From Sphagnum compactum (lineage: Eukaryota): a DNA stretch of 64,000 nt. The stretch spans positions 17,164,213-17,228,212 of the forward strand of contig OZ234493.1 of NCBI GenBank assembly GCA_965153455.1, written 5' to 3'. A model generated the notes under the pieces. It was not told where the DNA came from. It made no database searches and saw only the letters and a list, made by a program, of their open reading frames with translations. A program made the translations under genes and the position numbers. Below, in pieces: positions 17,641-51,434 of this stretch (position 1 is the stretch's first letter; each line of letters begins with the position of its first letter).

Positions 17641-17994
17641 TCTATTGAATGTGATCAATTGGGAAAGGCAGCAAGGGGATATGCAATTCAAAAGCATTCA
17701 TACTAAAATGATGATGGATCAATTTTATTATAGCTCAAGACTTGTTTCAAATGTTGAGGTCAATATCTCAAGTGCTAAGATGCATGGAAATCCAGAAAGG
17801 ACTAATGTGTTTTGGGGAAAATCATGATCCATGCGGGCTCACAACCTTAGAAAATCTCATCATAAAACATGGGTCATGAAGTGAGCAAGAGATTAGTAAC
17901 TTCAAAATAAATGGAGGATTGGAAGTTGTAAATTTTGATGTTATACATAGTGTTCAATGCACAACTTTTGGAATATTTGTTTCAGTTGTTGGTT

Positions 17995-31783: not shown

Positions 31784-34244
31784 TTTTCAATGCAGCCAAA
31801 GCAAGATCATCCATAAGAAGGTGTAGAAAAAGTGGCCATCGTCATGGGGAGGATTTAGCCAAATATGATTATAACCCAAATATGAAATGCAAAGATTTAG
31901 TCATCCTTCTATATTTTTGGTTATACATATAGAAATATAATATGGGTATCTAACAATTTGTATTATTTATTCTTTCACTTCTAACCTTTTTTTTCATTTC
32001 CAAGCTTTTTATTTCAAATTGTGGTGAGTTAAAATAAAGGTTGATCTCAATAAAGATGCTTGCAATTATTACTCTCCATTAGCCATAGGGAACTTGCCTC
32101 CTTGGGCATGAGGATTTCTGGTTCTAAAGATAATTTTCTCCAAATTTTAAGTGTAACCAATTCCAACAATTTGATTCAACATGCTTCACAAAGGAATCCA
32201 TGATCACAAGCAAGTAGCCATAAACCCATGCCATGACCAAGATGGTTGGATGTTTATTTGCAATTGTTCATAATAAAGCATAAGACAAAGGAAGTAATTG
32301 GCCATGTACTAAAGTGAAACCTTTTGGCAAGGAGCAGAGGTGTCAACAAATTCTTGCCATCACGTCAGCACGAAATTCATCAGAAAAGCACATTTCAAGT
32401 CCAAATTATGGTGTTCCAATTGACAGGCTTCAATGAGGCTATTTGGGGGACATGGGTCTTCTTCGCAACATGATGCTCAGATATATGGCTTAAATGGCTT
32501 ATGTTGAGTACTAACCAATTGATACTTATGACGATAATAATTTTTCATTCATTATGCAACCTTATTCTACAAGGTTTCACCCATTTGGTAACATCCCCCC
32601 CCCCCCCCCATTTTCCAACTTCAAACTTTCTATCCATTGTGTGATTTTCTTTTTCAAATTTTCCTCCACCATGCAATATTTCTTAGCACGTGGAAAATTT
32701 TATCAAATGGATGAAAGTTTGTAAAAATGTTGCATGATGGATGAGAATTTGTCGACTGAAGATGAAAAGACGTAATTCATCCATTATGTGCAACCTTTGA
32801 AATATTCATCATGCAATGTTCCCACCTTCCTTTGGGGAAAAGAATGAGAAGTTGAATAGCAATATGTCATTAGGGGGGTGGGGGGGGTCCAAAGAAAAAA
32901 GAAAACCCTTGATTCAAATGGCAACTCCCAAGGAGACAACCTCTTGACAAGCCAAAAAGGGAAAAAAAAAGAAAATACATGCCCAAGAAAACTTCAAAGA
33001 AAAAAATTGCCTGCCAAAAAAAAGAAAAACACACTTAACAAGCAAAAAGAAAAATAGAGGGGGACAACTTCCCCAGGGAAGGTTGTACAATGTTGCCATT
33101 AAAACCTTCTTAAGGCATCACAACCATTGCTCCCCAACACTTTTGTCAGGGAAGGTGTTATGTAATGTTGCTTAGAAAACATTGCCTTCCATAGGCAATA
33201 TTACCTTTTTAAGGCAACACAACCATTGCTCCTCAACTGTTTATTTGCCCAAGTTGTTCAGGGAGCACCCCATCTTTCTCCTTTCTTAAATGAAATCCAT
33301 TTGAGAAAAAGATGTGTCCATAAAAAGATTTGAAGCTTGGACCTCAAACATAATAGAAAGTCTCAACCATTATGCCATAATCTTTTTTTCAAAAACTAAA
33401 TTATGTGAGTCTAGCTAAAACAATTATCACAATTTATGTACCACTACAACAAAAAAGGGGCATATTGCGATCCAAATATCATCGCAAACAACAAAGAAAT
33501 CAGTTTCCGAAAACCCGCAGTTCCGAACAACAATTCCTCGCAAACTCTTAAGCCTTTGCGAAACCCTCACCTTCGCACCCGTACAATCGCAAGCTCTTCG
33601 CAACTACCGAAACTAAACCAATCGCAAAACATTTCCGATTATAATGTCTTCTATACATGATTTGTGATTCACAATACATCGAAAATTATTTGCAACAAAG
33701 CCAACATCGCAACGACTTAGCGAATTGACTCAAAACTCTATCGGTTTTCGATATAACGTCTAACGCAAACGTTTTGCGATGTTCGACATGCCGCTACGCA
33801 TTTGCGATAAAACTAACATCGGAAACTTTTTGAAACAAACTCATCAACGCTACAACTTAGCGAATTGACTCAAAACTCTATCGGTTTCCGATATAAGATC
33901 TAACGCAAAGAGTTTGCGATTCACAAAATGCCGCTAAAAGTTTGCAAAATGTAGGATTTCGCAAACCTGTTCTGGAATGATTTTAACCGTCTGAGTTTAA
34001 CTATGTCTGTGAGATGGTATATTTGGTCTTTTGGCTTTTGCAGTGTTGCGAAGCAATATGACTCGCAAATAGTTTTGAGATCGACTGTGTATCGTAAGAG
34101 CATGGCACTGTATTCTTATTTTGTACGCAGGGTTTAGATTCATTTGGAGTCCCTTTGGGCCGGAAAAAAAAAATCTATATCAAAATTTCAAAAGTTACAA
34201 TGTAAAAGGGTTTGTAAGTCTCGGGTATCTAACACACTAGCTGT

Positions 34245-36034
34245 CTATCTAGACCTCCTTCCCCTCTTGGATTTCTTCCTTGAATCTTTCTTCCTAGTGT
34301 TCTCTGGTGGAGGGGGAGGCTGCTCATCCTCCTCCCTCTCTTCATCGTCCCCCTGCCCCTCCTCCTCGTCGTCCTCCTCCTCCCTACCCACGCCCCCTAC
34401 AGAACCTGCATTTCGACTAGCAAATGAACTGGGTCCACTACTAATGGTAGCTACACTGGGGGGAGCAGTGCTAGCGCCTCTCTCCTCCTCATCACTGCTG
34501 CCCTGAGAGCTCTCACTCTCACCCTCAGATGCCTGCATTTCAACATGCAAAGCTTAGTCAACAATGAAAATCTTGATTCAAATGAAATCAATCTCAACAC
34601 AAACAGAAATTCAATCCCAACCAAACCCACTCACCAATAGTGCATCAACATGTTCAAAAAGATGCTCCTTGCCATGCTCCTGGCCCATTGTCATTTCTGC
34701 AGCTGTGATCTTCCTCTTGTACCTCTTGTACTGTCCCCATAAAACAACAAGTCAAAAAAAACGCATATTTGCGAAGCGTAGACCTTCGCATATTTTAACT
34801 TGCGAAGCAGTTTGCGATTTGTTCAAGTCTACAAACTCTTTTGCGAAGCGCAGACTTTCGCATACTATATCTTGTGAAGCAGTTTGCGAAACAAATAGCA
34901 TCGTACCTTTGCGAACTAAAAGCCATTTGACACATCTTTGCGATGCAATTCGCATCGCAAAAGGTATCCCAAACAGTCCTATGTGACTCGACAGAAACAA
35001 ATATTTGCAGAAAAAAAATGGAGGAGAGGGAGGGTACTTACAAATGCTGCTTTGAGGCCGGGAATGCCACCTTGCCCTAGCCTGTGGGTGGTGGGTGGAA
35101 CCAATTTCACTCGCTCTGCTGCCTTGAGGAACTTCAATGGTGGATCACCGACCTCGTCCACCACTGATTGGCATTCAGCAAGCTTCGACTCCAGTGCCTT
35201 CAGGTCACGGTTAGAACTCCTAGACTCTCGTGCCTTCTTGGCCTTGGCTAGCTGCTCTGTGATCTCCTTCACCTGCCTTGCTGCTTTCAGCTACACCTCA
35301 GACTGGTAGAAGGCATTCCAGATGTCTTCTGAGAACTAAAGCGGCCTCTCCAAGTTCTTGTACACATTCAGGTCTCTCAGGTGAGCACGAATCTTCATCC
35401 TGTCATGGTATCTTGCTTGAGACATTAAATTGGAAATCTTGTCTGCAATCCACTGTGAATCAAGCTCTCCTCCATTTCGAAATGCTCCCTTGACCTGATT
35501 TATCACTCTCCTCTGCTCTACCTTTGAGAGAGTGCCCCACTCAACTCCTCGTGCAAAGTTGGTAGAGACAATGTGCCTAATGGTGCTCTTGGCCCCAGTG
35601 TATGCCAGCTTGGTTGGAATTCCCTCCTCTGCCAATGTTATCAGAAGGAGCTTCTTCTTCTCCTCCTCCTTCTTCTTCAGATCGAGCTTCTTCTTTCTGA
35701 TGGCATTCCTCTCATCCTTCCTCCTTTTCTTCTCAAACGTTCTAGGTGAGAGAGCTCCTGTTGTTGCTCTCTCATCTCTCTTTCTCTTCTTCTCTGCTAC
35801 CTTGGCTTCTGTAGCCTTCCTTACCTCCTCCTCTCTTTATGCTTCCCCAGCAGTCAGCCCTGCTTGCAATGCTTGACCTAAGATGGCTGTCACGGATGCC
35901 AGCCCTTCAGGTGTCCTAGTATCGATTACAAACAGCTCTGAAGCTCTCAAGTGATCAGCCACCATCTTCTTCAACCTTTCCTCATTGTTCTCACCTCCTC
36001 TAGACCCAGAACCCCCTCCACCAATCCCAGCCAT
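34245..36034 (-). pseudogene. CACTA second-ORF (TnpA/Ptta-like) gene, 3 exons, with premature stops
   Basis: Exons 36034-35042, 34730-34635 and 34532-34245 joined in phase 0 by GTAAGT/GTGAGT..CAG introns. Has an HRLGQGG motif, a K/R-rich region and an acidic/basic tail. In-frame TAA (35837) and two TAGs (35336 and ~35291); the duplicate copy has CAA where this copy has TAA. Confidence 0.7.
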
Positions 36035-37160
36035 TGCAATCCGCCCCCTCGTGTCTGCCCAAGCTTTCCTTCTACAATTCTCGAGCAATGTCGAGAATGA
36101 GTTCAAATTCACTCGCCGTGGTACTCTAGTCTAGACCCCCAGAAAGCTTGGGCAGACACCTTATTCCGTTCCAGCTTAAGGACTTTCGGAAATTCAGGGC
36201 TTGCGATGTAACCCGCATCGCAACCTGCGATACGGTATTGCTCGCAATGGCCGTGCAATGCTCTTCGTATCGCAACGTTGGATGGTTGCGAAGTCGGGGG
36301 CTTCGCTAACGTCGGCGGAAGTTAAAGGTTTTAGGGCTTTGGTTTCAATAACGGATGCAGATGCGAAAACGAATGCGATGGTAGGGGGTTCGCAAGGGGT
36401 TCGCAAATTTTTAGGGTTTAAGGTTTCTTCTCGAAAGTTATAGGTCAGAGAGCTCCTGTTGTTGCTCTCTCATCTCTCTTTCTCTTCTTCTCTGCTGCCT
36501 TGGTTTCTGCAGCCTTCCTTGCCTCCTCCTCTCTTTGTGCTTCCCCAGCAGTCAGCCCTGCTTGCAATGCTTGACCTAAGATGGCTGTCATGGATGCCAG
36601 CCCTTCAGGTGTCCTAGTATCGATTGCAAACAGCTCTGAAGCTCTCAAGTGATCAACCACCATCTTCCTCAACCTTTCCTCATTGTTGTCACCTCCTCTA
36701 GACCCAGAACCCCCTCCACCAATCCCAGCCATTGCAATCCGCCCCCTCCTGCCTACCCAAGCTTTCCTTCGACAATTCTTGAGCAATGCCGAGAATGAGT
36801 TCAAATTCACTTGCCGTGGTACTCTAGTCTAGACCCCCAGAAAGCTTGGGTAGACACCTTATTCCGTTCCAGCTTAAGGACTTTCGAAAATTCAGGGCTT
36901 GCGATGTAACCTGCATCGCAACCTGCAATACGGTATTGCTCGCAACGGTCGTGCAATGCTCTTCGTATCGCAACGTTGGATGGTTGCGAAGTCGGGGGCT
37001 TCGCTAACGTAGGAGGAAGTTAAATGTTTTAGGGCTTTGGTTTAAGTAACGTATGCAGATGCGAAAAGGAATGCGATGGTAGGGGGTTCGCAAGAGGCTC
37101 GCAAAGTTTTAGGGTTTAGGGTTTCTTCTCGAGAGTTCTAGGTCAGAGAGCTCCTGTTGT
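35726..37160. repeat. 698-bp tandem duplication (two copies plus ~38 bp) of the TnpA-like 5' end and upstream region
   Basis: TAGGT(G/C)AGAGAGCTCCTGTTGT at 35743, 36441 and 37139; ORFs 35837-36112 and 36445-36810 are near-identical. Confidence 0.95.
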
Positions 37161-37358
37161 GCATATGCTAAAGGGTTTCGGGCAACCAATCCTATAGGCA
37201 TTGTTGAGCCCACATTGGATATAGGTATGCATTTCTTTTTGGTTTAGGTAGTCTCAATTTATGAGTTGTCAATGGTTTATATTGTTGTATCACATGATTT
37301 TTGAAAGTCTAATCTGGTCTTTGCCTTACATTTGTGCCTTACTAATGTGACAGATGAT

Positions 37359-38506
37359 ATGTCTTCCTCCTCCGTTGTCTCCACTAGTGACTCATCCTCC
37401 TCAAATGAAGGCACATTAGTTCATACGCAAGCAGAGGTGTCTCATTCTCCTCATGGTCCACCTCGGCAGCTTTGCCAATGCACCAATTGTGGTGGTCAGA
37501 TTTCACAAAAGTCATATGTTTGTGCTCAACACATTCAGCGATTTGGGCGTCATCGTGGTCTTACCCCAGGAACTTCTTCATCTCATGTGGTAAGTGTCAT
37601 TTTACCATTGTCATTTTTCCTCTTTGATACATGTTATTTTTCATGAAATCCTCTTTGAAACTATTTTCACTTCCATGGTTTGTTGTGGTTTTTTGAATGT
37701 AATAGGGTTCCTGTATGACACCAGCACCCTATGTTCTATCACAAGGGGTTTTAGCTGCCATAGGAAATGCGCTTTCGCATGCATTTGCTGTAGGGATTAG
37801 TGCCTCTCATGAGGCCAGTAATCCACATCATGAGGCAAGGCCATGTCTGCCCTCCGTTAGACAGCGATCCAAAGCACAACGTCCAAGTGAGGGTCATGCT
37901 AGGACTATTGTTGAGGGCACATGGGGTATGTGTGAATTCACTGGCAAATGTGCCAATATTATCCAGTCATGGAACCCTGCAGTTCTTGGGTTGCTTGATA
38001 GTTTGCCCTATGATGAGGAGGTTGTGGTTTGGGGTAGACGATGGATTGTTAAGACCTCTACACTTGGAGAGAGGCATGGCTATGGAGTATATGCTTGTGA
38101 GGACATCATTGTAGAGGATTCAACTAGTTGTCGTAGAGAGGGTCCTACTTTGTTCCCTTATGGTGGGCCTATCTATAAGAGAAGACATTGGAACATGATC
38201 CTCAGACAACATCCTGAGTGGAAGACCTTTGCTCTTGAGATGGACACCTTTGCTGGTAGCACTAGGAGGCATAGTGATGTGAGGGTGATAGATGGAGACC
38301 CCATACGTTCTGGAAACATTGTTGGTTTCATCAACAGTACGGTGGGGACTCGGCCTAAGCGTAAGGCTAATTGTGAGTGGGTTTTTGTTGAGGGACCTCC
38401 TCCAGCACCATATGGCGAGACTTATCATGAAGACCATTGCCTGGTGTTAGCTACTAAGACGATCAGATTAGGAGATGAGTTGTTTACACACTATGAGTGG
38501 AATTAG
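37359..38506 (+). CDS. Transposon-borne SET/PR-domain protein (putative lysine methyltransferase) with N-terminal CxCxxC..H motif; 2 exons, about 343 aa
   Basis: Exon 1 37359-37589 (donor GTAAGT) and exon 2 37706-38506 (acceptor aatag) join in frame with no stops. SET motifs: VKTS..HGYGVYACEDI, PYGG, IDG..SGNIVGFINS..ANC, LVLATKTIRLGDELFTHY. Confidence 0.8.
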
Positions 38507-38652
38507 GATTCCACCATTTCTGAACTATGTACTTTGTTTAAGACATAACATACCATATCTATATACATGCATTTTGGCATTTTTTCTTTATAATGTAATA
38601 TGCAAATATGCTTGGTATATAGTTAAGATCTTCTGGATTTGGTATTGCATAG

Positions 38653-40990
38653 AATATTCGGCCTTCTGAAGACATGCTGCCACGGAGGTTGAGAACAACA
38701 TATTGGGAAATGGGCATGCCAGGCAAATCAGACTCTTCATCAACTCATTCTTCATCAAATGACTTGTCTCCTCATGATGAAGGTGTCTCTCAACCAGTTC
38801 AGGAAGCACCACTGCCTGCAAACCAAGAACAAGCAATGGATGACTTCATGGTTGACTGGTTTGGACTTGACATAGTTGATGATATGTCTAGCAACCCACA
38901 TGATGAAGGAGCCAATGCAGATGATCCACGTCATCAACATACTGCCCAGGCACAACGGCAGTGGCAAGAGGCGAAGGCACATGCTCAAACACCTATTTTT
39001 CAAGGTGCAAGGTTAAGCCGTTTAGCAGCCATACTGGGGTTGTTAAACATCCAAGCAAAACACAAGGCAAGCAATACTATGTTGTCAGACATTTTCCAAT
39101 TTTGTCATAGCCTCTTGCTACCTGAGGAAAATGTTTTGCCAGGATCTTGGAAGGAGGCTAAAAAGATCTTATCCTCCATAGGCATGGAGTATCAAATTGT
39201 CCATGCATTGTTAATGACTGCATGTTATTTCATGGGAACAATGCCCATTTAACGGAGTGCAATACATGTGAAGAGGCTCCATATGATCCTCAGATGCTTA
39301 CAGAGAAGGTGCCCAGGAAATCAGTAAGGTGGTTTCCCATTATTCCTCGCTTGCTGCACATGTATCGATGTACAGACTTGGCCGAGTTAATGGTTTGGCA
39401 TAAGGAACATCGATCAGAGCCTGGTGTTATGAGGTTACTGGTTGACTCTCCTGCTCACAAGCATGTGGAGTCAACATGGCCAGAGTTTGAGCGTGACCCT
39501 AGGCATGTGAGGTTGGGGTTAGCATCAGATGGTGTTAGTCCACATTCACTTGGAGGAAAGGGACGACCTACTTCTGTTTGGCCAGTTGTTGTCATGAATT
39601 ACAACCTTCCTCCGTGGTTGTCTATGAAAAAAGGATTTTTGCTGCTTTCTCTTATTATCCCAGGGCCAAGTAAGGTGAAAAACCTAGACACCTACTTAGC
39701 ACTAATGGTTGATGAGCTCAAAACATTGTGGGATGGAGTATGGGCATATGATGGGAGGAAGACCACTGGAGGAATACCACGTGTATTCAAGTTGAGGGCA
39801 ATCTGCATGTGGACAATGCATGATTATCCTGGTAAGAAATCATGCACATGCCTCTATATATTTCTTTATTATTCTGTTTTGTGATTATTTGTTGTTCTAA
39901 TATTCCGTTCTTCTACAATCAGGGTTTGGTTTTGTAAATGGGCTGCAAATTCAAGGCTACAAGGCCTGCTCTACATGTGGCCCAAGTTTCGAGGACATGG
40001 CTAAATACTCAAGCCATCTTCGCAAAGTTGTTTACCTTGGCCATACAAAGTTTCTTCCACTGGGACATGATATGAGATCAGATCCACTTTTATTTTCATC
40101 TTTTGACATGCCTTATGGTGATGAGCGTGATATTCCAGAAGCTACCACTTTTGCATATTGGAAGGATGTGGCCAATAGAGTTATTGACCCAAATGATTCT
40201 ATGGTGTTTGAGGGTAGTGGATTGACAAGGTGGGGTATACTCAACAGCTTGCCTTACTGGGGTGAGCTGAAAATACGTCATCTCTTGGACCCCATGCACA
40301 TTGAGGGAAATGTGGGAAAGGCTATCATAAAACAGCTCTATGGAGAGAAGGACAGTAACTTTAGGGAGGCCTGTGAGGATTTTGAGAGGCATCCCGATGT
40401 GTGGATTACTGTTGATCCTAACACAGGTATTGAGCAGTGACCATCAGCTCCATGGACACTTACTACACATGAAAGAAGAGACTTTCGAAATCGCATAGGA
40501 GAGATGCGATTCCTTACATGTTTGAACTTTGATGGCAAGGGTTGAATTTAGAAGTACTCTATTGCTTTTATTTATATTTAAATCTGTATGCCTTATACTG
40601 GAAAAAGAGTTTGAAGTATAGAATGTTATCTGTTGGATGTCTAGAATACTTTTGTATAATTTTATGGTACCTTGTTGCAGGTTATGGAGCTAATCTTCAA
40701 AAAGCTTTTGGTAGGGACGATGACCACAAGTGGCCAAGGTATCTCAAGACACATGACTATCATCGTTTACTGCAACACATATTGCCTGTGGCAATAATGG
40801 GCTTAGCTAGTGCAGAAGTACAAGATGCTCTTTGGTCATTGGGAAATCTGTTGAGATGGGTATGCTCAAAGGAGTTATTTGTAGAGGAGATTCCAAGAAT
40901 GAGGGTAATAGCAGCAGAGGTGGTATGCAAGTTGGAAAAGGCCTTCCCTCCACCATTATTTGATTGTCAAGTGCATTTACTAGTTCACCT
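38653..40990 (+). pseudogene. CACTA (En/Spm, Tnp2/TnpD family) transposase, disrupted and truncated
   Basis: Motifs HA(C)VNDCMLF (1-nt frameshift near 39208), WFPIIPRL, RHVRLGLASDG, WPVVVMNYNLPP, IIPGP, DELKTLWDG, MHDYPG, GYKACSTC, LDPMHIEGNV, LKTHDYH..LQHILP, FPPPLFDCQVHLLVHL. Introns 39832-39922 and about 40520-40680; TGA at 40438. Confidence 0.95.
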
Positions 40991-41579
40991 ATACATATGA
41001 TCTGGCCACTACACCCGTAAGGACGCAGGCTGGAGGCTGTTTGACCAGAAAAAAGGGGGTGTAGTGGCAAGCTTTTTTTACGTAGTGGCAGGCTGTTTTT
41101 GTTGACCTTTTTCACTTTTTGTTACTTTTTTTATTGCTTGTAACTTTTATAAGTTACTTTTTACTGTTGAAAGGGGTAACGTTTGTTACTTTTTGTTACT
41201 TTTTTACTGCTTGTAACTTTCATAAATTACTTTTTACTGAGCCAGGAGGGCCAGGGTTTATATTCTCTTCATTATGGGACGGGGGGAAAGGGTGCACCTT
41301 GATTTTTTTCCTTCATTTTTTTGACTGTTTAGGGGGAGGGAGGGGGTTGGAGGTTGATGTTTTTTTTTTTCCCTTCATTGAAAATATGGAAGGAGGAGGG
41401 GGGAAAGGGGTTAATTTAGGGGCTCTGGAAATGTTTTTTTCATTGTGGAGAGGCTAGGGAGGGGAAGGGGGTAATTTTTTTTACAAATTCATTATGGGAC
41501 AGGGGAAAGGGTGCACCGGGGGAAAGATTGACATGTGGAAGGAGGAAGGGAAAAGGGTTAATCTCTTTCTTAAATTTTC

Positions 41580-44148
41580 CATGGAAAATTTCATCATACA
41601 AGCTAAAACCCTTCCCTTAGGAGGCATTTTTGTCTTCATGTGGAACTCAAAAATGACTAACCAGATCTTATTTTTGGAACCCTTCTTCTTGTTGGTCCTA
41701 GCTTTGGCTGTGCTCCAGCCCAAATGCTTTCATCTTGTTCTTGTATGTTGGTGTTTACTTCACCATGTCCACAATCTGTAGAAACATGATTTCAACATTC
41801 CATATACGAGATTTTGCAATGTTGGGGGAATCCCCAGCCATCTACATTGCATCAGTTCTAAAGTACCTCTAAATCCAAATCCAGCAAATTGAATAGAGAG
41901 CATGACAATGTCTTTAATCCCAAACCCAAAATGAAGAACTGAATGGTGTCTACTGCTGCCCATCCGTCTCACCTTATTCTCTGGTTTCCCCCCATTTAGT
42001 TCACAATAGACAGTGAAAGCACTATGGATCCCTTCTGTTTGAAGCTACAAGTTGAAAGAGGCAATTACATACGTGCCTATATATATACTGGAGGTTTTCG
42101 TTCAAGTACTGGAATCCAAATAGAACAATCAACAAACCAACCAAAACTGTTCACAAATCCTGAGATCCAACTAGAGGCATGTATTGTCACTGAGAGAAGT
42201 AAGAACTGCCTGCTTGCCTTTGAATACCCAGAGGCGTCACAGCTAAACTCTGCAACAATTATGCTCTATAGCTGTGGCAACTCTGCACCTCAGCTAAACC
42301 CTCCCTCTGTTAAGAAGCTGAGCTTACCCAAATCTTTCTTGTTCCATTGGCCACATACTACTTATTCCTGTTCACTATGTGTCTGTCATCACACACCCTC
42401 TGGATTCCATGACAACAGAAATAAAATAATCTCTTCATAGAACTATTCTCAACATCATCTGTGCATCAATGCATTACCAAAAGTTTTGTGCTTTTCCATT
42501 ACTTGATGAAATCCATTTCCAATATTGAGCTGTTCATGTGACCTGTGTGCAGCCCCCCAGAATACATTCATAGACCATGAACATAATTCTCATGCAAGAA
42601 TTGTGACAACTTCTTAAATTGTCATAGTTTCGGATCACAAGACCACAAAAAGAAGCAGTTACACAATACAAAGGAGATAATGGATGTTGACCTTGAGATG
42701 ATTGAGTAGAGCATCTAAGGCTATTGTTGTTTTTTCTTGAAGGAAGATCATAGTATCAGAAGTGGAAGAGAAGGTAGGGAATTCATGCTGTGATAAATGA
42801 CAGGTTCCAGGCCAGGGTCCTTCACAAACACTACAGAAGGTGCTCGCTTCACTCCAACTCTGTCCACAACAACCCAGTCATCACCATATGTTTATTACTT
42901 TCTCTGTGCATACCAAGTAAGTGTGTAACTGCACATGCTGAAGGTGGTGCAGGACGTTATGAAGAAACAAGAGGAGAAGATTCCTGAGAGTTATAGAAAT
43001 CGGCTAAGTTCTGCAGTGTACAATAAAGAAAAGGAAAACGGAATGTGCTAGTGTAGACAAACAACTCGGTCTCCCAAAATGTGCTGTTCTGCTCCTACCA
43101 AAGCACCATAGCAAAGACTGCATAATCCCAGTATTGCTTAGTAGCCTGTCGAATGTATGGTGCTGCCCGTTCACCTGTGTTAGAAAATACTTTCACCTTC
43201 ACTTGCTCACAAAAGAAATTGTCATTACTGATGTAAGCAAGTTCTAGCTTTTTCTTGCCCTCATTTTCCTTCTTTATTAATTCTCCTTGTTCCCTCAGCC
43301 CTTGCAACTTTTCATGCATCAGCGGTACTATAAATTGAGCTCAATGCGGAAAAGTAGGGTTATCAAAATGGATTGAAATTAAGCACTGCACCTTGTGAGG
43401 ACCTGTTTTCTGGATGACATCTATCATCTGCATGTATCTCACCCAACAAATGATCAAGTAATCAGCTTGGATTCATGATTTGGGTTCACCACGGCAAGGC
43501 CATGATCCCCTTCCAGAAGCACTCTGCAATCAATTGTTGTGTGCATTCTCTAGACTGAGGATCCAAAAACCTGACTAATCAAAACTTCACATAAGTATAA
43601 AGTTTGCTGTTGCAAATTGAAGACAGAGGCAACAGAGGCAGCCTTGCAGAACTTCAACCACAAAACTATTGCTTAAATAATGGGTATTGTGGGTTACCAA
43701 GCCTTCAGCACCATAGTACAAGATGCGATGCAACTTGAGAAGGGATGTTGCCGCCCATTCCACCAAAGCATCCACTGTCTACTCCCCACAAATTTAAAAC
43801 CTGTAATTCACAAACCCTCTCCATCAGTCTTTTTCAAACTGCAGACTTCCAATTGTGATTTGGTCACCAGAAACTAAACATGTCGGAGTGTACCTAGTGA
43901 GACAGCCTAAGTGCCTGCAAGAAGGAGTAAACACAACAATCTCCGGAAGACCTGCACATCGAATGAAGCCCTCTTGATATTGTCTCCATGCCATCAGCAG
44001 TTCACAGTACCTTCTCATTTTCTTTCACACTAGGGCTTCAAATCTAGATACTTCTCCAGACACAGATGATTATTGCCAACTATTAAAAAAATCGTAATCA
44101 GAGTATAGTCCATGTTTTTGAAGCATCCAGACATTACTGACATGGACT
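41580..44148 (-). pseudogene. Unidentified degenerate spliced host-gene fragment
   Basis: Several exon-like blocks with GT/AG boundaries on the minus strand (e.g. tgcag|GTCTTCCGG near 43950; ...ALDALLNHLK|gtc near 42692), with many stops. Product not recognised. Confidence 0.35.
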
Positions 44149-44174
44149 GGGTTTAGGGTTTAGGGTTTAAGGGG
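44149..44174 (+). repeat. Short interstitial plant telomere-like tract
   Basis: GGGTTTAGGGTTTAGGGTTTAAGGGG. Confidence 0.75.
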
Positions 44175-47100
44175 TGTTCCCACCAAAATTAGGTTTTTTT
44201 TTTGGGGTTTTGAGGTGACGTACCCCCCCATTTTCAAGTGTTCTGAAGCCAATGGTGTGATAAAATTTTCATAATCTATCATCATTTGAAAGATATGGGG
44301 GGTATGAAATTTCAGGGGGGCCGGATTGATGAGGGCATAAAGGGTTAATTATGATACATGTTGAATGTTTTGAAGTGACCTACCCCCCCATTTTCAAGTG
44401 TTTTAAAGCTATTGGTGGAGTTATTTGGGCCTATACATATGATCCGGGCATTACGCTCGCGATGCCTGAGGCCTGAAGCCCTTTGACCACCAAAAATACA
44501 CAGTGGTGTTGAGGCCTTTTAGTGTAATGCTGAGGCCCCTTTTGTTGACTTTTTTCACTTTTTGTTACTTTTTTACTACTTGTAACTTTTTCAAATTACT
44601 TTTTACTATTGAAGGTTCAGTGTTTGTTACTTTTTGTTACTTTTTTTATTGCTTGTAACTTTCATAAATTACTTTTTTTACTGTTGAAAACGGCCAGGGG
44701 AATCATTTACTTATATTTCTTCATTGTTTAGGGGGAGGGGGTGCGCCTATACATATGATCTGTGCACTACGCTCGCAGTGCACGGGGCTGGGGGTTGTTT
44801 GACCACCAAAATGGTACTGTAGTGCGAGGCTATTTTTGTTGACCTTTTTCACTTTTTGTTACTTTTTGTTACTTTGTTTATTGCTCGTAACTTTTATAAG
44901 TTACTTTTTACTGTTGAAACAGAGGTAAGGTTTGTTACTTTTTTTACTGTTTGTAACTTTCATAAATTACTCTTTATTGTTGAGAAGGGCCAGGGTTTAT
45001 ATTGTATTCATTGTGCGAAGGGGGAAAGGGTACACCTTGATTTTTTTCCTTTTTTTTTTTTTACTGTTGAGGGGGAGGGGGATGGAGGTTAATGTTTTTT
45101 TTTGCTTTCATTTGACGTGTGGAAGGAAGAAGGGAAAGGGATGATTATTCAGGCTGTTCTAAATCAAATTGTCACAATAATCATGTATTATCGAAACAAA
45201 AATGTTATTTCATGCACTTTAGGTGCATGATTATTATTTTTGTTTAGAAAGGTACCTACCTAAATAAGCAATTCTAGTGCTCATGTGAAAAAATAATCAG
45301 ATATAGAGATGGGGTTTCATGGGTGCACCACCATATGGTGATAGTAGAAAGAAACTGCACATGTCTAATTAAGATCATTAGTGTTAGGTTTTCACCTTCT
45401 CCCAGGAGCAATTCTAGTGCTCATGTGAAAAATAACAATGTCTAATGTCTCAATTATTATTTATGTTGAAACATTGACAAAATTATGATCCTCACCAAAA
45501 AACATTATGCATAATTGGATAATGAATAATATGTCAAACAAGAATAATATTTCAAGCACTTCAGGTACTTGATAATTATTCATGTTGAATCATTTTGAAA
45601 TATCACAAAACTGATGTACATCTTAAACAAAAATAATATTTCATGCACTTCAGGTGCATGATTATTATTTTTGTTTAAAAGTTGCCTACCCCAAGAAATA
45701 ACTTTGGTGCCCATGTGGAAAACATACATGTTCACTCAAGGTGATGATTTCTTAGAAAAAAAGAAAAAAACAACATTTCAAACAAAAAATCAATAAGGAT
45801 ATTAATTTGATTCAAGGATGATAATGATCATCCTTTAAAACTTTTCAAATGACTCAATACAGAATTTTTTTGGAAAAACGCCATACCGTATTGATTCCCT
45901 CCTTGGTTTTTCATTGTACAATGAAGAACTTTATCTGCCCTGAACATGAAAATTGTTCCATTTCTTGTCTCAAATTTTACCTCAAATTCTGGCAAAACAA
46001 AACATTGCCATCGGGAGCCAATGAGACTGGTTGATATTACCTCAAAACATCGCCTATTGAGACCTCCTCACTCCTCTCCCGCTTTCCTTCCTTCCTTCCT
46101 TCCTTTAAAAACACGCACGAGCAAACACACATGAGCAGACAGACGCGGAAAACGAAACAAAAAAAATCCCCTCTTCCGCAACTAAGATCTGAGATTACAA
46201 TCTATTCCTATGATTTCAGTCAACCTGGAATAGAATTGAGAGATGGACCTGATGATGAGGTCATGGAGATTTCAGATCCAATACCATGCAAACGCAGAGG
46301 AAACTAGATAGAAAATAAAGAAGATTTGAGCAATTTGAACAATAACAAAAGTCACACACATGTTCAGTGACCTTCAACAGCAGCATCTATGGTAGTGACC
46401 AACTACCTTACAACCAGAAGAAAATGCCATTATCCTCCGATCACCATCTCCAGAGGACATACTAGTACTTCAAGCAAAGTTTAAGAGAATATTTTGAAGA
46501 GAACTGGTACTATAACCACCACATCTAGAGAAAACATTGGCACAGGATCTTACCTTGTTAAGATTATCTCCATAACGTGCACAACGTAGCACACAACAAC
46601 AAAAGAAACTCTCCCATTGCAATTACACCGGCAATTTTCAATGCAGCTTCTGCTACAGTTTTCAAGTAGGTAAAGAAGCATCCTAGAGAGGAAGAAAATA
46701 TTTTTCTCAGTAGTGTACCTGAGGAGAATGCACCAGTAGATGCTGCAAGCTTTGAAAGAGAGGCAGATCGCAATGCCGATGACCATATGTCTAAAATTGA
46801 CTCTACGGTTCCTGCTTGCAGGCCCTGAAATGACACCATGGTACACCGTCCGGCAACGACAGTTCCTTGTGTCTTCTCCATGGGTGCTTCCAAAGTTGTG
46901 TACACAATTCCAGTCCTGATGCAGCAGCTGGTTGTCACCATCTGTGCATCCACTTGCTGCAGCACCTATACATATGATCTGCGCACTACGCTCGCAGTGC
47001 GCGGGGCTGGGGGCTGTTTGACCACCAAAAAAGCACCGCAGTGCGGGGCTGTTTTCGTTGACCTTTTTCACTTTTTGTTACTTTTTGTTACTTTTTTTAC

Positions 47101-47987
47101 TGCTCATAACTTTTATAAGTTACTTTTTACTGCTGAAACAGAGGTAAAGTTTGTTACTTTTTTTAACTTTTTTTACTACTTGTAACTTTCATAAATTACT
47201 TTTTACTGGGCCAGGAAGGCCAGGGTTTATATTTTATTCATTGTGCGAGGGGGGAAAGGGGTGCACACCTCGATTTTTTTCCTTCTTTTTTTTTTACTTT
47301 TAAGGGGGGAGGGTGTGGAGGTTAATGTTTTCTTTTTCGTATACATATGAAAAGGTGGAAGGAGGAGGGGGGAAAGGGGTACATTTAAGGTAATCTGGAA
47401 ATGTTTTTCTTTCATTGTGGAGAGGCTAGGGAGGGGAAGGGGGTACTGTTTTATACAAAATCATTATGGGACGGGTGAAAGGGTGCATCGGGGGAAAGGG
47501 TGCAAGTTGATTTTTTTTATTCTGTTTTTTATTGTTGAGGGGGAGGGGGGTGGGGGTCAATGTTTTTTTTCCCCTATATATATATGAAAAGGTGGAAGGA
47601 GGAGGGGGGAAAGGGGTACATTGGGTTTTTCTGGAAATGTTTTGTTCATTGTGGAGAGGATAGGGAGGGGTTCACCGGGGGTTTAGGGTTTTTACAAATT
47701 CATTATGGGACAGGGGAAAGGGTGCACCTTGATTTTTTTTTCTTATTTTTTTTACTGTTGAAGGGGAGGGGGGGTGGAGGGTAATGTTTTTTTTTTCCTT
47801 CATTTGACATGTGGAAGGAGGAAGGGAAAGGGGTGTCTTTTTCTTTTTCTTTTTAAATGTTGTTTTTTCATCATGGAGTGGCTAGGGATAGGGGGTCAAA
47901 GGTCAAGGGAGGGGGTGCGCCTTTATTTATTTATTTTGATTTTTTGATGTGTTGAAGAGGAGGGGGCGGAGGTTGAGGTTTTTTTTG

Positions 47988-50780
47988 GTATTGATTTAGT
48001 AAATGATAATCAATATTGGACAATATTGATAAACAATGCTACTAAAGAATGTTCCACTAACCCAACTCACAAGGCGCACCTTATATGGTCAAACAAACAT
48101 ACAACTCCACTTATGGAATTACAAAACTCATGTAGAGAAGTTGTCATGTACTATAGGGTACTTGCGTGATGGTTTAGGACATGTTCCACCTTGGTTCAAA
48201 CCTATACATACAAATCTACTTTTTCACTTTTCGTAACAGTTTCCCCTTGCGTGCAAACAACCTATGCATATGATGTGAGCATTATAATCATAAGGTCGCA
48301 GGCTCAAGGCTGTTTGACCACAAAAAATCCAGTGCAATGCCAAGCTATGCATACGCTGTGTGCATTACGCTCACCCCATGCAGTGCAAGGTTGTATGCTC
48401 GCAGGTGGGATGCTGTTTAGGGTTGACTTTTTGTTATTGTTTATAGCTTTTGTAAATTACTTTTTACTTTTGAAAGGGGGCAACGTGTGTTATTTTAGGG
48501 TTTTTTTTTTTATTGTTCAAGGAGAGGGGGTGCACCTATACATATGTTCATCACAAACTTCTTTGTCAAACGTATTGGTATTGATATTGATTTAGTAAAT
48601 GATAATCACTATTGGACAATATTGATAAACAGTGCTACTAAAGAATGTTCCACTAACCCAATTCACAAGGCCCACCTAATATGGTCAAACAAGAATACAG
48701 CGGCACTTATGGAATTACAACACTTCATGTAGACAACTTCCTGTACCTATAGGGTACCTCTGTGATGGTGTAGGACATATTCCACCTTGGGTCAAACCTA
48801 TACATATGATTTTTTTTTCCTCACTTTTTGGAATAGTTCTCCCCTGCAGGCAAGCAGCCTGTGCATATGATGTGAGCCTTATAATTATAAGGTCGCAAGC
48901 TCAAGGCTGTTTGACCGCAAAAAATCCAGCGCAATGCCAAGCTATACATACGCTATGCTCATTACACTCACCCAATGCAGTGCAAGGCTAAAATCAATGT
49001 GGAAGGGATCAGAAAAACCTGTGGAAGGAGGAAGGGAAAGGGATGATTGTTTTTTCTTAAATTGTTTTTTTCATTGTTGAGTGGCTAGGGACTTGGGGTG
49101 AGGGGTTTTTTTTAATATGTTGAAGGGGGATGGGAGGGAGTTTTTTTTTTGTTTTAATTTTCGAATGTTGAAAAGGGATGGGAGGGGGGTGGAGGTTTAT
49201 GTATTTTTTTGCTTTCATTTGACGTGTGGAAGGAGGAAGGGAAAGGGATGATTTAAATTTTTATTTTTTTTCATTGTTTAAAATTAAATTTCCCCCGAAT
49301 GTCATCACTACCATCTACCAAAAAGGTTGTGAAGCCCTTTTAGACAGACACTTTAATTAATGTTAGCTTGACCATTTTTTAAACCAAATGCATTTGGAGT
49401 TAGATTTTGTGTATGAAACATTGAGGTGCTTGAGCATTGGAGGCCAATGGACCAACAAGAAAAAGGGAAGAACCCCAAGTTTGTTTGGGGGGGCCCAGCT
49501 CCTAGACTTTTGTTTTTTAACAAACAAGAATGTCGATTATGAAAAAACCAAGAAGGGTAAGGTTTAAGGGTCAGATTGTAAGCTTCTTGGATTGTCTCCA
49601 TTCCTTATTTCTTTTTATGGCGGTCTACGGTTTTTTTCTCCTTCAGATGTCTTCTGTTTCAAGTCCATCACAAAGTGGGGACCCCTTATTTGTATTGGTG
49701 TTATTTAAACACTTTCAGAACACTTCTCAAAATGTCCAAGGTTTTAATGCTTTGTTCATGTAAAATAGACATTGAAACAATTTAGATTGTAAAGACTTAA
49801 TTTTGGTATTGTTTAAATAATAAATGATGTAACACCGTATTTACATTGGTTTTTTGTTGTTTGACATGTTGTATTCACATGTTGTCGATATTGTAATGAT
49901 ATTGCATTAGTATTGTGATTGTATTGGATATGCACTTTTAATTGTAAACGACGCAATGTTGTTATAATATGGTTACAAACTCTATTCTTGTATCGATTCT
50001 CTATTATATTTATGTTGTCTATATTTTGAAAGGCTTAGTACTCATTTTTTTCCAACATCATATTTGCATTGCACATGCTTGGTTGAACGTAAGGGATGTA
50101 ATGTTGCAACAACATAGCTAAAAACTTAATATTCAATATTGACTCGATGTTTTATTCTTATTGTTTATGTTACTGTATATATGTCATAATCACACTTTCC
50201 CAACATTGTATTTGTATTGTTTTTGTGTTGTTGAAGGTAGGTGATGTAATGTTGCAACAACACAATTGCAAATTGTATATTCAAGAGTGAATCAATGTTG
50301 TATTCATGTTTATTGTGATGTTGCAAATGTGTTAGGGGCACAACACAACAAAATCATTTAGAAATTGCATATGCACCATTGGTAGCAAGAGGTACAATAT
50401 CGTAGCAACATGTTTACAAACTTTGTATTGGTATTGCTTTAGTAAATGATAATCAACATTGGATAGTATTGATAAACAGTGCTACTACAGGATGTTCACT
50501 GACCCAATTCACAAGGCACTCCTATACATGGTCAAACAAAAGTACAACTCCAGTTATGGGTTTAGGGTTCTTCATGTAGACAACTTCCTGTACCTACAAG
50601 GTAGCTCTGTGATGGTTTAGAGCATATTCCACCTTGGTTCAAACCTATACATATGATCTGTTTTTTTTAACTCCTTCAAACAGCCCCGCACCACACTCCA
50701 ACAACCCATACATATGATTTGTGCATTACACTCATAAGGTCGCAGGCTCAAGGCTGTTTGACCACAAAAAACCTATACAT
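47988..50780. repeat. Three dispersed copies of a ~350-400 bp module
   Basis: TATTG(A/C)TTTAGTAAATGATAATCA...CCCAA(C/T)TCACAAGGC...CCACCTTGG(T/G)TCAAACCTATACATA starting near 47988, 48583 and 50430. Confidence 0.85.
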
Positions 50781-51434
50781 ATGACGAGCTGTTTGAGCGT
50801 AGTGCGAAGCTGTTTTTTAAAATCTTTTTTTCACTTTTTGTTACTTTTATTATTATTTATAACTTTCATAAATTACTTTTTATTGTTGCGAAGGGCCAGG
50901 GTTTGTATTGTATTCATTCTGCGAGGGGGGAAAGGGTGCACCTTGATTTATTTCCTTCTTTTTTTTTTACTATTGAGGGGGGAGGGGGATGGAGGTTTAG
51001 GTTTTTTTTCCCCCTTCATTGGAAATGTGGAAGGAGCTTCTGCCCCAATATCTGATCCTCAAGAAAAAATATGTAGCTGCATCTGTGCATTAGCTTTTTG
51101 CTGGTGAAACAAGTGAGCTCTATGTTGCCTCCTTATGGTTTCTGTTGAAGTCTCATTGCACTTTGGTCTCCCTGGTCTTCATTTTTTTTTCGTCTTTATC
51201 TCCTTTTTTATATTATTCTTTTCCTCTTCTTACTGGATTTTTTTTTGGGGCCATATTTCCCAATTTTACCTCTTCTTTGCTTTGTTTATTTATTTATTTA
51301 TCATTTATCTTTTTTTTCCGTATTTTTTTCAATTTGTGCCAATGTCTTTCCTTTTATTCTTCTATCCTTTCCTTGGTTTCGTAAGAGGCATTGAACGAAT
51401 AATAATGTACAAGTACATGCAAGCTGGGAATAAT

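Follow-up and report, generated by a model that had tools for sequence, protein, structure and literature searches.

A divergent SET-domain gene in a Sphagnum CACTA transposon shares the first coding exon of the transposase

A gene encoding a SET-domain protein was found to be part of a CACTA (EnSpm) transposon in a stretch of 64,000 nucleotides of Sphagnum compactum DNA (contig OZ234493.1; the whole stretch is called the window hereafter). The gene lies inside the element termini, on the same strand as the transposase and directly upstream of it, and its first exon also opens the coding sequence of the transposase mRNA. We consider it likely that this open reading frame belongs, as an accessory gene, to a lineage of bryophyte CACTA elements, and that it encodes a divergent, stand-alone SET-domain protein that is a candidate lysine methyltransferase. 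Transposon-borne SET genes are already known; what is new here is a SET gene that shares the first coding exon of the transposase. Mobile elements that bring along a candidate chromatin-modifying enzyme of their own, as this moss element does, are rare.

The SET gene within the CACTA element

The features of the element copy in the window are as follows (window positions).

33442-33460, plus strand: left terminus CACTACAAC..., with a CACTAC motif; start of homology in 5 loci
33465-34069, no strand assigned: left subterminal repeat region, with direct and inverted TTTGCGA/TCGCAAA-centred units and a 140-bp tandem pair
34245-36130 (approximate), minus strand: ORF-L, a divergent gene of no known family (the TnpA-like gene of the preliminary description)
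35726-37111 (start approximate), no strand assigned: tandem duplication of ~698 bp, particular to the window copy; a single unit in other copies
37225-37353 (approximate), plus strand: 5'-UTR intron of the SET/transposase unit, joints 37220->37351/37359
37359-37589, plus strand: coding exon 1 of the SET gene, 77 codons (77 aa), phase 0, ATG at 37359
37590-37705, plus strand: predicted SET intron, 116 nt, GT at 37590 and AG at 37704-37705
37706-38506, plus strand: SET exon 2, 266 codons plus TAG
38653-39831, plus strand: coding exon of the transposase, joined in frame to exon 1
39832-39922, plus strand: transposase intron, joint 39830->39922 (cut +1), GT..AG, 20 reads
39923-40990, plus strand: remaining part of the transposase up to the break of the element at 40990, with the end of Transposase_21 and the beginning of DUF4218

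The preliminary description of this DNA, made from the letters alone, had reported a stop-free reading frame of two exons with SET motifs, and this frame proved to be real, its coordinates and the motif positions (GYG from 38078, GFINS from 38324 and ELFTHY from 38477) being confirmed. Joined over both exons it encodes 343 aa without stops. Exon 2 is composed of a variable linker (aa 1-64) followed by the SET core (aa 65-266), and an internal Met at 37715 allows an alternative product of 263 aa, a length also found in gene models, P0004 among them. The borders of the predicted SET intron are GT..AG in 9 of the 11 loci that span the whole intron, and GT..AA in the remaining two. The best database match of the window protein was a "SET domain-containing protein" of Sphagnum jensenii, likewise of 343 aa, with 95% identity and identical exon structure, which belongs to a cluster with 360 member sequences. 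This model and its cluster support that the frame in the window is not a chance ORF.

The location of the frame inside a CACTA element, also proposed before, is supported by the termini, the transposase family and a 3-bp target duplication in locus L027. Homology to other copies begins exactly at 33441/33442 in all five loci that reach that far (L004, L010, L027, L036 and L044), the flanks beyond it being different except for one common to L010 and L044, and it is continuous from 33442 through the SET gene into the transposase. The right terminus is ...GTAGTAGTG in L023 and, in mutated form, ...GTAGTAATG in L027, where positions 6264-16156 make up a complete copy of 9,893 bp with CACTA ends and an ACA/ACA duplication of the target, this being the one locus from which the duplication is known. 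The TTTGCGA motif matches 21 times in the window against 6.7 ± 2.4 expected, a number reached by 0 of 100 shuffles, and 19 of the 21 matches are inside the element, with 9 in 33482-34069 and a second cluster of 7 at 34768-34961. As for the tandem duplication, blastn aligned window segments 33894-36413 and 36424-38962 both to overlapping L004 8692-9375, and the same was seen with L005, L010, L027 and others.

At its other side the window element stops at 40990, where L002, L012, L015, L017 and L027 lose homology to it but remain homologous among themselves. When the tail that the window copy lacks was taken from L027 and searched in the 64-kb window by blastn and tblastx, nothing was found. This truncation explains why no convincing pair of CACTA...TAGTG ends was detected inside the window. 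Matches to Transposase_21 were found at 39162-39884 (E=5.9e-39) and, continued, at 39901-40440 (E=1.6e-6), and a match to DUF4218 at 40533-41000 (E=1e-6). Both neighbouring genes had been described as disabled, and so they are. ORF-L carries an in-frame stop between 35836 and 35837 in the window copy, and the transposase lacks one base after 39208 (the extra G is present in 16 of 17 RNA reads and in all aligned contigs), has one in-frame stop within 39925-40440 and is broken off at 40990, a point beyond which 30 RNA reads continue into sequence seen in L027. With its transposase frameshifted and truncated, the window copy is dead.

ORF-L gave no match in Pfam. Its homologues number 279 at E≤1e-3, in Sphagnum spp. 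and Calypogeia fissa (57-73% identity), and its RNA was detected as reads with the first mate on the plus strand and as a CT..AC joint 34531->34634 (3 reads), which corresponds to a GT..AG intron on the minus strand.

The shared exon and its transcripts

Exon 1 encodes a Ser-rich start followed by a C-x2-C-x13-H finger (C41, C44 and H58), the three residues of which are invariant in 8 of 8 aligned relatives. Finger and SET occur together in a single ORF or gene model in P0001, P0015, P0056, P0062 and P0082. In comparisons with Pfam, exon 1 of the window matched Sgf11 alone (E=0.016), and, of nine relatives examined, P0160 alone gave a weak match to Transpos_assoc (PF13963), over profile positions 15-65 of 74, with E=0.059 and 14 bits, below the cutoff of 27.7. 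In Protein Atlas, exon 1 and ORF-L scored 0.79 and 0.80, no better than shuffled sequences. A search for exon 1 among longer proteins returned SET-type or short models of up to 404 aa and no long finger-transposase, which is weak evidence.

In stranded poly(A) RNA, a joint 37589->38653, with GT..AG borders and in frame, was found in 15 reads that begin at 13 different positions and in 7 more with a short overhang. This joint skips the SET exon, in such a way that the latter lies inside the first coding intron of the transposase. The preliminary description had presented the SET gene as a gene between two others; its position between them stands, and its status as a fully separate gene does not, since exon 1 is common to the transposase mRNA. 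Upstream, the 5'-UTR joints 37220->37351/37359 were present in 6 reads of X20 and also in contigs of X1, X2 and X5. Sense-strand poly(A) depth on SET exon 2 was 4-15, versus 16-54 on the transposase; the joint 37589->37706 between exon 1 and the SET exon was absent among the joints listed (threshold of 3 reads, ~12% of the poly(A) run). Two metatranscriptome contigs (X1 record 4 and X5 record 18) cross the SET intron unspliced. As 562 of the 624 aligned reads are 95-99% identical to the window, most of the reads come from other copies. Translation of the SET ORF could be as the spliced 343-aa form or as the 263-aa form from Met 37715.

In the arrangement that we propose, a single promoter would give rise to two proteins with the same N-terminal finger, a finger-transposase if the distal 3' splice site at 38653 is used, and a finger-SET protein if the proximal one at 37706 is used and the transcript ends shortly past 38506. 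The common finger would bring the methyltransferase to whatever the N-terminus of the transposase binds, which may be the TTTGCGA-rich subterminal repeats of the element or a host partner, and the enzyme would methylate, at the finger-bound site, a lysine residue in a histone or some other chromatin protein. The effect could be that silencing is held off, or that ends or target sites are marked; that the SET protein might have such an anti-silencing or target-marking activity is purely our inference. The exon common to the SET gene and the transposase provides a concrete and testable idea of how the enzyme could be targeted.

Maize En/Spm produces TnpA and TnpD from one alternatively spliced transcript, the transposase ORFs being located in the first intron of the TnpA mRNA. 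By analogy, the moss unit would have one promoter, common 5' exon(s) and two proteins, with one coding region in an intron of the other. It differs in that it is the transposase mRNA of the moss element whose first coding intron houses the SET exon, the transposase splice being the one observed, and in that the TnpA-like position of the moss element is taken by the separate, divergent ORF-L.

Conservation and decay of the SET copies

The SET gene is multi-copy in Sphagnum, and it is collinear with the element in the 32 loci having enough homologous flank. Among 47 loci, collinearity extends for at least 200 bp upstream in 17, at least 200 bp downstream in 24 and on both sides in 8; in 4 the locus contigs are too short to judge, and 11 break inside or beside SET, one of which (L029) is still collinear downstream. 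All 47 loci were found via SET itself, so these counts say nothing on the share of CACTA copies that carry it. A nested repeat of ~0.8 kb abuts 6 of the 11 loci that break at SET.

An exhaustive search among 1.84 billion representatives yielded 98 at E≤1e-3, of which 67 were at E≤1e-10. All but one of the 98 are either below 50% identity or, where above it, short fragments of the same element. The named members of the family come from Sphagnum spp., Calypogeia fissa and Riccia sorocarpa, and in P0097 of Riccia the C-terminal half of SET is followed by Transposase_21 (E=4.8e-45). Identity is concentrated in the core, with 77% against 20% in the linker for P0015 of Calypogeia (p=1e-15); the core exceeded the linker in 35 of 35 comparisons, significantly (p<0.05) in 34 of them. 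The core motifs are intact in Sphagnum subfamilies that are 56-67% identical to the window protein (P0013, P0016, P0026 and P0030). Judged by these comparisons, the SET gene is old and conserved.

Flowering-plant CACTA elements pick up host gene fragments, and the window protein is a weak match to the Pfam SET profile, in line with a recent capture in which one CACTA copy took up a fragment of a host SET gene (transduplication of Pack-CACTA type). Such an origin is nevertheless very improbable and close to being refuted: the gene is found at one and the same position in many copies inserted at different sites, the finger-plus-SET architecture is also present in liverwort homologues, the adjoining ORF-L is conserved in Calypogeia as well, and no canonical host SET was identified among the 98 representatives at E≤1e-3. 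The preliminary description had contemplated a SET fragment of host origin limited to one copy, and what we found is a multi-copy gene for which a search of the 1.84 billion representatives revealed no host parent.

Selection was studied within the Sphagnum family by calculating dN/dS pairwise, on a tree with Fitch parsimony, on a common set of 7 sequences and by codon position. For the SET exon, a pairwise median of 0.99 was obtained over 463 pairs, with 0.99-1.05 on internal and 0.91-0.98 on terminal branches of the tree, and the SET core alone gave 0.73-0.86. Transposase segments of the same copies gave 0.44-0.62, with a dN of ~0.05 in SET and transposase alike. The test discriminates poorly, because in the transposase, too, divergence hardly differs between codon positions (e.g., 0.066/0.062/0.052). 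The Sphagnum SET copies decay neutrally, and dN/dS within the family cannot settle long-term selection. A check proposed earlier was whether SET is consistently at the same place in the family and whether dN/dS is below 1; the first part is borne out by the collinear copies, in loci seeded with SET, and the second fails within Sphagnum, where the neutral evolution among copies that had been named as an argument against a transposon-encoded chromatin writer is what was detected, with values about 1.0 for the SET exon and somewhat lower ones for the core.

In-frame stops are absent in 5 of the 22 copies that cover at least 80% of exon 2 (window included), and present in the other 17. This proportion is close to the expectation of neutral decay at this age, so the intactness of the window copy is no evidence of selection, and the earlier caution that it could be due to chance holds; an open SET frame is expected by chance in a young copy about one time in four.

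These data bear on the possibility that SET is a relic passenger, functional in the ancestral element and now, in the present Sphagnum family, a decaying intronic remnant transcribed as a retained intron. A dN/dS of ~1 for the SET exon against the lower values of the transposase in the same copies, and the stops in most copies of exon 2, are in its favour, as are the 15 reads that skip the SET exon, with no SET-specific joint among the joints listed, and the read depth on the SET intron, which contigs cross unspliced. However, the NG86 contrast may stem from a C>T bias and a lower dS and not from selection. By rough arithmetic, moreover, the depth of 7.9 in bin 38482-38733 is roughly explained by the exonic ends, with little left for 38507-38652, and this low depth fits transcripts that end past the SET stop better than plain intron retention. 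Having in mind also the 360-sequence cluster around an intact 343-aa model and the intact core motifs of the divergent Sphagnum subfamilies, we regard a relic as unlikely.

The SET fold and its relation to known enzymes and transposons

The presence of a SET fold in the 343-aa product was supported by structure prediction. In Pfam the window protein scored below the SET (PF00856) threshold, with 20.2 bits where 22.4 are required (E=8.2e-4). The AlphaFold model has a pLDDT of 83.7 and a pTM of 0.72, with residues 65-266 mostly above 90, and Foldseek matched it to at least 309 PDB chains at E≤1e-3, of which the best 50 listed are all SET lysine methyltransferases. Among these 50, LegAS4 is the leader (8swi, E=2.8e-7), followed by SETD8, MLL1-4, ATXR5, NSD1, EZH2 and G9a. 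The TM values normalised by target length were 0.54-0.70 for compact SET chains (SETD8 and the MLL family) and lower for longer chains. In a library of viral structures, 18 viral SET proteins were matched at E≤1e-3, with FirrV-1-G2 of Feldmannia virus at 1.3e-7. At the sequence level, the window protein had 0 matches in PDB and the family profile only weak ones (E≥0.039), and the best PDB sequence matches of the distant member P0117 were SET7/9 (E=0.021), of use for motif equivalence only. On the basis of the model and its structural matches, the window protein has a genuine, divergent SET fold.

Conservation of the motifs was analysed in an alignment (A1) of 36 rows, made of the window protein, 32 of the 98 search representatives and three close relatives, 30 of which (window protein included) matched Pfam SET at E≤0.01, the best at 1.3e-8. 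The GxG motif is conserved at G125 (34/36) and G127 (35/36), and Y157 is found in 35 rows. The Asn motif is conserved at N210 (32/36), S211 (35/36) and N222 (all 36), and ELFxxY at E258 (35/36) and the catalytic Y263 (33/36). HMMER aligned the GxG and ELFxxY blocks of the family with those of EZH2, and its GxG and YxG blocks with those of SET7/9. The canonical SET motif N-H-S-C-x-P-N is absent, the family having (I/V)-N-S with Ser at the His position (35/36), an equivalence with NHS that rests on position and not on structural superposition, and ~10 residues are inserted ahead of the invariant Asn222. The preliminary description was right in reading NS in place of NH (N210 and S211 of the window protein), and equally in seeing no pre- or post-SET Cys cluster, the protein ending 3 residues past the catalytic Tyr. 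Upstream of the motifs, the family has its own conserved N-flank (residues 65-110, pLDDT 84-96). Enzyme activity is not assured by such a sequence, with Ser for His, an insert of ~10 residues and no post-SET segment.

A likeness to PR/SET or minimal viral SET domains had also been suggested, and here no special affinity was detected, since all SET groups match about equally: LegAS4, SETD8, MLL, ATXR5, NSD, EZH2 and giant-virus SETs were all matched in structure at E values of roughly 1e-7 to 1e-5. The best 50 listed of at least 309 PDB matches include no PRDM chain, MECOM scoring just E=0.68 with a distant member as query, and viral SETs score no better than cellular ones. The moss protein has in common with LegAS4, giant-virus SETs and the SETD8, MLL and ATXR5 cores a compact SET core without pre-SET, these being its best structural matches (SETD8, MLL and ATXR5 near 1e-6). 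It is set apart from them by an identity of 14-22%, the Ser for His, the insert and the end right after the Tyr.

Whether histones are the substrate was considered in the light of these matches. An enzyme that tunes transposition by methylating a non-histone protein, such as the transposase, the ORF-L product or a host factor involved in silencing, would be consistent with fold searches in which no SET subfamily of known histone specificity stands out, and with a family that has its own N-flank and no pre- or post-SET modules. SET7/9, the best PDB sequence match of P0117, has many non-histone substrates. Against this, the top structural matches are histone methyltransferases, some of them solved with histone peptides, and the data point to no particular non-histone substrate, so that we find it quite unlikely.

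Beyond the preferred reading, that of an accessory CACTA gene for a candidate lysine methyltransferase, we tentatively raise a wider one, possible but doubtful, in which a moss-liverwort CACTA lineage has long carried its own methyltransferase, expressed from the transposase unit, with the N-terminal zinc finger of the transposase as an address label, and writes a histone mark on its own ends or integration sites. The sharing between mosses and liverworts would then be due either to inheritance since their split or to passage between bog-dwelling species. If true, a DNA transposon of land plants would possess a chromatin writer directed at the element itself, by which it escapes silencing or steers insertion.

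Few transposons carry chromatin-acting enzymes, and VANC, TET/JBP, the SET of HarbingerS and PAG2 of red algae are the main source of insight into how such elements oppose host silencing or turn it to their use. Transposon-borne SET genes are described for HarbingerS and MuDR of Phytophthora and for Helitrons (PMC12730594, citing Kojima & Jurka 2014, Repbase Reports; bioRxiv 10.1101/2025.02.11.637652). These likewise carry SET, in other superfamilies and oomycete hosts, and the likeness is by description and not by SET sequence; the accessible parts of their descriptions mention no exon common with the transposase, whereas the moss SET gene has one. In the literature searched, with Repbase Reports and subscription journals outside its scope, we found no account of a CACTA element that carries SET, either in bryophytes or in any other land plant.

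Closer in superfamily is PAG2 of the Plavaka (EnSpm/CACTA) elements of red algae, a long-conserved SET-domain accessory gene for which modulation of the element's own chromatin is proposed in a preprint on Bostrychia moritziana (10.1101/2025.02.11.637652). Both are EnSpm-superfamily elements with a SET accessory gene. According to that preprint, PAG2 combines an N6-adenine DNA methylase domain with SET in one protein and forms a cassette with two other genes in Plavaka elements of 17-19 kb, whereas the moss element, likened to it by description, is a 9.9-kb plant-type CACTA with Transposase_21 and a lone SET behind a small finger, in a transposase intron. VANC of VANDAL (Mutator) and TET/JBP of fungal KDZ/Plavaka are also transposon-encoded epigenetic effectors (PMC12730594; 10.1101/2025.02.11.637652), whose action on the epigenetic state of their own element is either demonstrated or presumed. 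Their folds are unrelated, and they act by DNA hypomethylation or 5mC oxidation, in contrast to the lysine methylation predicted for the moss SET. According to the Sphagnum genome study, CACTA is the most abundant classified repeat type in that genome, of which it makes up 6.8% (PMC9946827).

The SET reading frame and its predicted fold

The preliminary description had placed an intact two-exon SET gene inside a CACTA element. Reading of 37000-39000 together with stop-to-stop ORFs recovered this exon structure and a product of 343 aa, and the motifs GYG, GFINS and ELFTHY were all found where they had been located. We consider it probable that a bryophyte lineage of CACTA elements carries this as a conserved accessory gene, which would be expressed from the transcription unit of the transposase, with the finger exon in common, and whose product would be a lysine methyltransferase. 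The features in the window are these:

35726-37111, no strand assigned: tandem duplication of ~698 bp, private to the window copy (one unit in other copies, blastn)
Between the left end and SET, divergent: ORF-L, first described as a TnpA-like gene
37359-37589, plus strand: exon 1, ATG at 37359, 77 codons
37590-37705, plus strand: predicted SET intron, GT at 37590 and AG at 37704-37705, from reading the sequence
37706-38506, plus strand: exon 2 (SET exon), 266 codons plus TAG; full product 343 aa
39162-39884, continued at 39901-40440, plus strand: Transposase_21 (E=5.9e-39)
40533-41000, plus strand: DUF4218, downstream of the SET ORF on the same strand

The top database match of the SET ORF is a Sphagnum jensenii "SET domain-containing protein" (343 aa, 95% identity) from a cluster that comprises 360 sequences at 90% identity, so that the ORF corresponds to a gene model already recognised and present in multiple copies. 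Another S. jensenii model, P0007, named "Transposase" (404 aa), combines the first two thirds of SET with the transposase ORF (window 38375-38785); since no such SET-to-transposase joint is among the RNA joints listed, it is probably a prediction artefact.

Pfam SET matched the window protein at E=8.2e-4 with 20.2 bits, below the cut-off of 22.4 bits, and matched 30 of the 36 aligned relatives at E≤0.01. A phmmer search of the PDB with the window protein gave no match, and the best E of the family profile against the PDB was only ≥0.039, all matches being SET enzymes except one. An AlphaFold model, made from an input alignment of 36 sequences, had a pLDDT of 83.7 and a pTM of 0.72, with residues 65-266 of exon 2, the core, mostly above 90. 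With Foldseek it matched at least 309 PDB chains at E≤1e-3; among the matches listed, all were SET lysine methyltransferases (LegAS4, SETD8, MLL1-4, ATXR5, NSD1, EZH2 and G9a). The SET identity put forward in the preliminary description is therefore marginal by sequence and, going by the predicted model, clear by structure. Its proposed affinity to PR/SET (PRDM) or viral-type domains did not hold, as giant-virus and phage SETs match the model as well as cellular ones and no SET subgroup stands out.

In the alignment, the GxG glycines are retained in 34 and 35 of the 36 relatives, Tyr157 and Glu258 are retained, and Asn222 and the catalytic Tyr263 are found in 36/36 and 33/36, respectively (exon 2 numbering). 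The replacement of the canonical NH by NS, already noticed in the window copy, extends to the family, with Ser at the His position in 35 of 36 relatives, and given this change the catalytic activity is putative. The family also carries an insertion of ~10 residues ahead of Asn222, and the chain terminates 3 residues past Tyr263. The protein could act on the chromatin of the element itself or of its targets; a non-histone substrate is the alternative, which we judge quite unlikely.

Element boundaries, copies and neighbouring genes

A metagenome scan gave 47 loci encoding SET relatives, all from moss-associated samples and every one found through SET itself. Homology by blastn starts at 33441/33442 in all five loci reaching that far, coinciding exactly with CACTACAAC, and the flanks differ in four of them. 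From this left end (33442) homology continues through SET into the transposase in other copies, which bears out the location of SET inside the CACTA. TTTGCGA/TCGCAAA units are abundant in the left 600 bp (the window has 21, where 6.7 were expected, and 19 of the 21 are within the element). On the right side, five longer loci lose homology to the window at 40990 yet stay homologous to one another, RNA reads extend beyond 40990 into the continuation known from L027, a locus with a whole copy (6264-16156, 9,893 bp, ACA/ACA on its two sides), and the missing tail was not found in a search across the window, so the window copy is cut or interrupted at 40990. The right end ...GTAGTAGTG is present in locus L023. 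In place of the tail, 40991-51000 contains repeat units that terminate in ...GCTGTTTTTGTTGACCTTTTTCAC, preceded by a GTAGTG motif (at 41060, 41082, 44818 and 50799); this stretch has no match in the 47 loci and may represent a different repeat family or have caused the truncation.

Collinearity of at least 200 bp was found upstream of the ATG in 17 of the 47 loci, into the transposase in 24 and on both sides in 8; four contigs were too short to judge. Homology is broken inside or beside SET in 11 loci (L029 is also among the 24), six of which abut a nested ~0.8 kb repeat, the other five making up two flank-sharing groups. The repeat occupies 2190-3010 of L029 and also occurs in L021, L032, L033, L041 and L045. 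SET could instead be a recently captured host gene fragment; none of the 47 loci, broken ones included, has SET in a host-gene setting, the exhaustive search identified no host SET parent, and we give this origin very little credence.

Both neighbours are disabled in the window copy, as first described: ORF-L has an in-frame stop at 35836/35837, and the transposase has lost 1 nt after 39208 and breaks off at 40990. An extra G after 39208, present in 16 of 17 RNA reads, would unite ORFs 38653-39252 and 39162-39884 in a single frame. The ~698-bp duplication takes in ORF-L's 5' part together with the sequence preceding the SET/transposase promoter, and its second unit has CAG at the site of the in-frame TAG of the first. 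A Pfam scan of ORF-L gave no match; its 279 homologues at E≤1e-3 come from Sphagnum spp. and Calypogeia fissa.

Transcripts and the shared first exon

Between 38 and 62% of sampled words were present in each of fourteen RNA runs. Stranded poly(A) raw reads (run X20) and three metatranscriptome contig sets were mapped on 33442-41000. In X20, 562 of 624 placed reads were 95-99% identical to the window, so that they derive mostly from other copies. First mates are nearly all minus-strand from 36970 onward, which together with the GT..AG joints indicates plus-strand RNA. A GT..AG joint 37589->38653 was covered by 15 reads with 13 starts, plus 7 short overhangs (X20); it is in frame with the acceptor ORF, whose first position is exactly 38653 and which extends into Transposase_21. 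The transposase N-terminus is thus encoded by exon 1, and the SET exon lies within the first coding intron of the transposase. Other joints define a 5'-UTR intron (~37225-37353) and a transposase intron (39832-39922, 20 reads). A further 26 poly(A) reads omit 161 nt within 40516-40678, with ends CA..TG, either a non-canonical intron or a deletion in expressed copies.

Read depth in X20 was 4-15 on the SET exon versus 16-54 on the transposase. The predicted joint 37589->37706 is absent among the RNA joints listed, and contigs span this intron without splicing it out. By a rough estimate from binned depths, 38507-38652 seems to have little coverage, which would fit transcripts ending just past the SET stop. 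No other non-coding stretch is as well conserved among copies as the 116-nt SET intron (37590-37705), whose p-distance is 0.021-0.023 versus 0.047-0.083 for other introns and UTR; its AT-richness may leave fewer C>T changes, the alternative being splice-regulatory constraint.

Exon 1 carries a C-x2-C-x13-H motif whose C41, C44 and H58 are invariant in 8/8 aligned relatives, among them Calypogeia and Riccia proteins with finger and SET in a single chain. The Pfam Transposase-associated domain matched weakly one of nine relatives scanned (E=0.059); the finger spacing agrees with that of the domain, an agreement that proves nothing.

Conservation, decay and precedents

Within the Sphagnum family, SET copies decay neutrally. 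The pairwise median dN/dS of exon 2 is 0.99 (463 pairs), at odds with the value below 1 proposed as a check in the preliminary description, and the tree has 31 synonymous, 104 non-synonymous and 6 stop changes on internal branches (ratio ~1.0) and 89, 275 and 20 on terminal ones. By region, dN/dS was 0.73-0.86 for the SET core, ~1.0-1.2 for the linker and 0.44-0.62 for transposase segments, a contrast that may reflect mutation bias, since codon-position divergences are flat across all regions and dN is ~0.05 throughout; C>T and G>A changes predominate. In-frame stops are lacking in 5/22 copies of exon 2, and in 4/11 and 2/9 of two transposase segments, so the early caution that intactness could be chance was justified for the window copy.

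An exhaustive search gave 98 representatives at E≤1e-3, 67 of which reached E≤1e-10; named relatives belong to Sphagnum, Calypogeia fissa and Riccia sorocarpa, and the remaining ones looked up stem mostly from assemblies of metagenomes or sequencing runs. In all 35 comparisons the core shows a far higher identity to the window protein than the linker does, significantly so in 34 (Calypogeia 77% vs 20%, p=1e-15; Riccia P0044 36% vs 9%), a pattern across lineages that requires the SET core to have been under purifying selection for a long time. With Riccia P0097, in which the C-terminal half of SET is followed by Transposase_21 (E=4.8e-45), it makes the SET-transposase pairing old. The neutral decay agrees with SET surviving in today's Sphagnum family as a relic exon, a reading that we find unlikely; we favour the conserved accessory gene.

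Between moss and liverwort (C. fissa P0015, P0040, P0161 and P0262), each of the three proteins of the element is unusually similar, with Sphagnum-Calypogeia identities of 77% for the SET core, 72-74% for exon 1 and 73% for ORF-L; horizontal transfer between bryophytes or vertical retention are possible.

SET genes are already known in several transposon groups. They are reported in HarbingerS and MuDR elements of Phytophthora and in Helitrons (PMC12730594, 10.1101/2025.02.11.637652), and in red-alga Plavaka elements of the EnSpm superfamily (Bostrychia preprint, 10.1101/2025.02.11.637652), whose PAG2 differs in having SET fused to a DNA methylase. In the Sphagnum genome, CACTA outranks every other classified repeat type in abundance, making up 6.8%, and SET goes unmentioned in the accessible part of the genome paper (PMC9946827). 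In the literature searched, which did not extend to Repbase Reports, subscription journals or supplements, no CACTA carrying SET was found described for bryophytes or other land plants. What is new here is the host group, the backbone of a plant-type CACTA and the exon common to SET and transposase.

Elsewhere in the window, three long adjoining ORFs (515, 437 and 425 aa) occupy 54991-59559 on the minus strand, in its GC-richest part, with Pfam matches to DEAD/DEAH helicase (1.7e-17), Helicase_C (8.2e-14) and an OrsD-type domain (8.2e-9), so that the ORFs make up either a helicase gene or a mobile element of large size. A minus-strand ORF at 17954-18553 has a PPR repeat (PPR_2, 1.5e-7, Pfam) and is probably part of a host gene.
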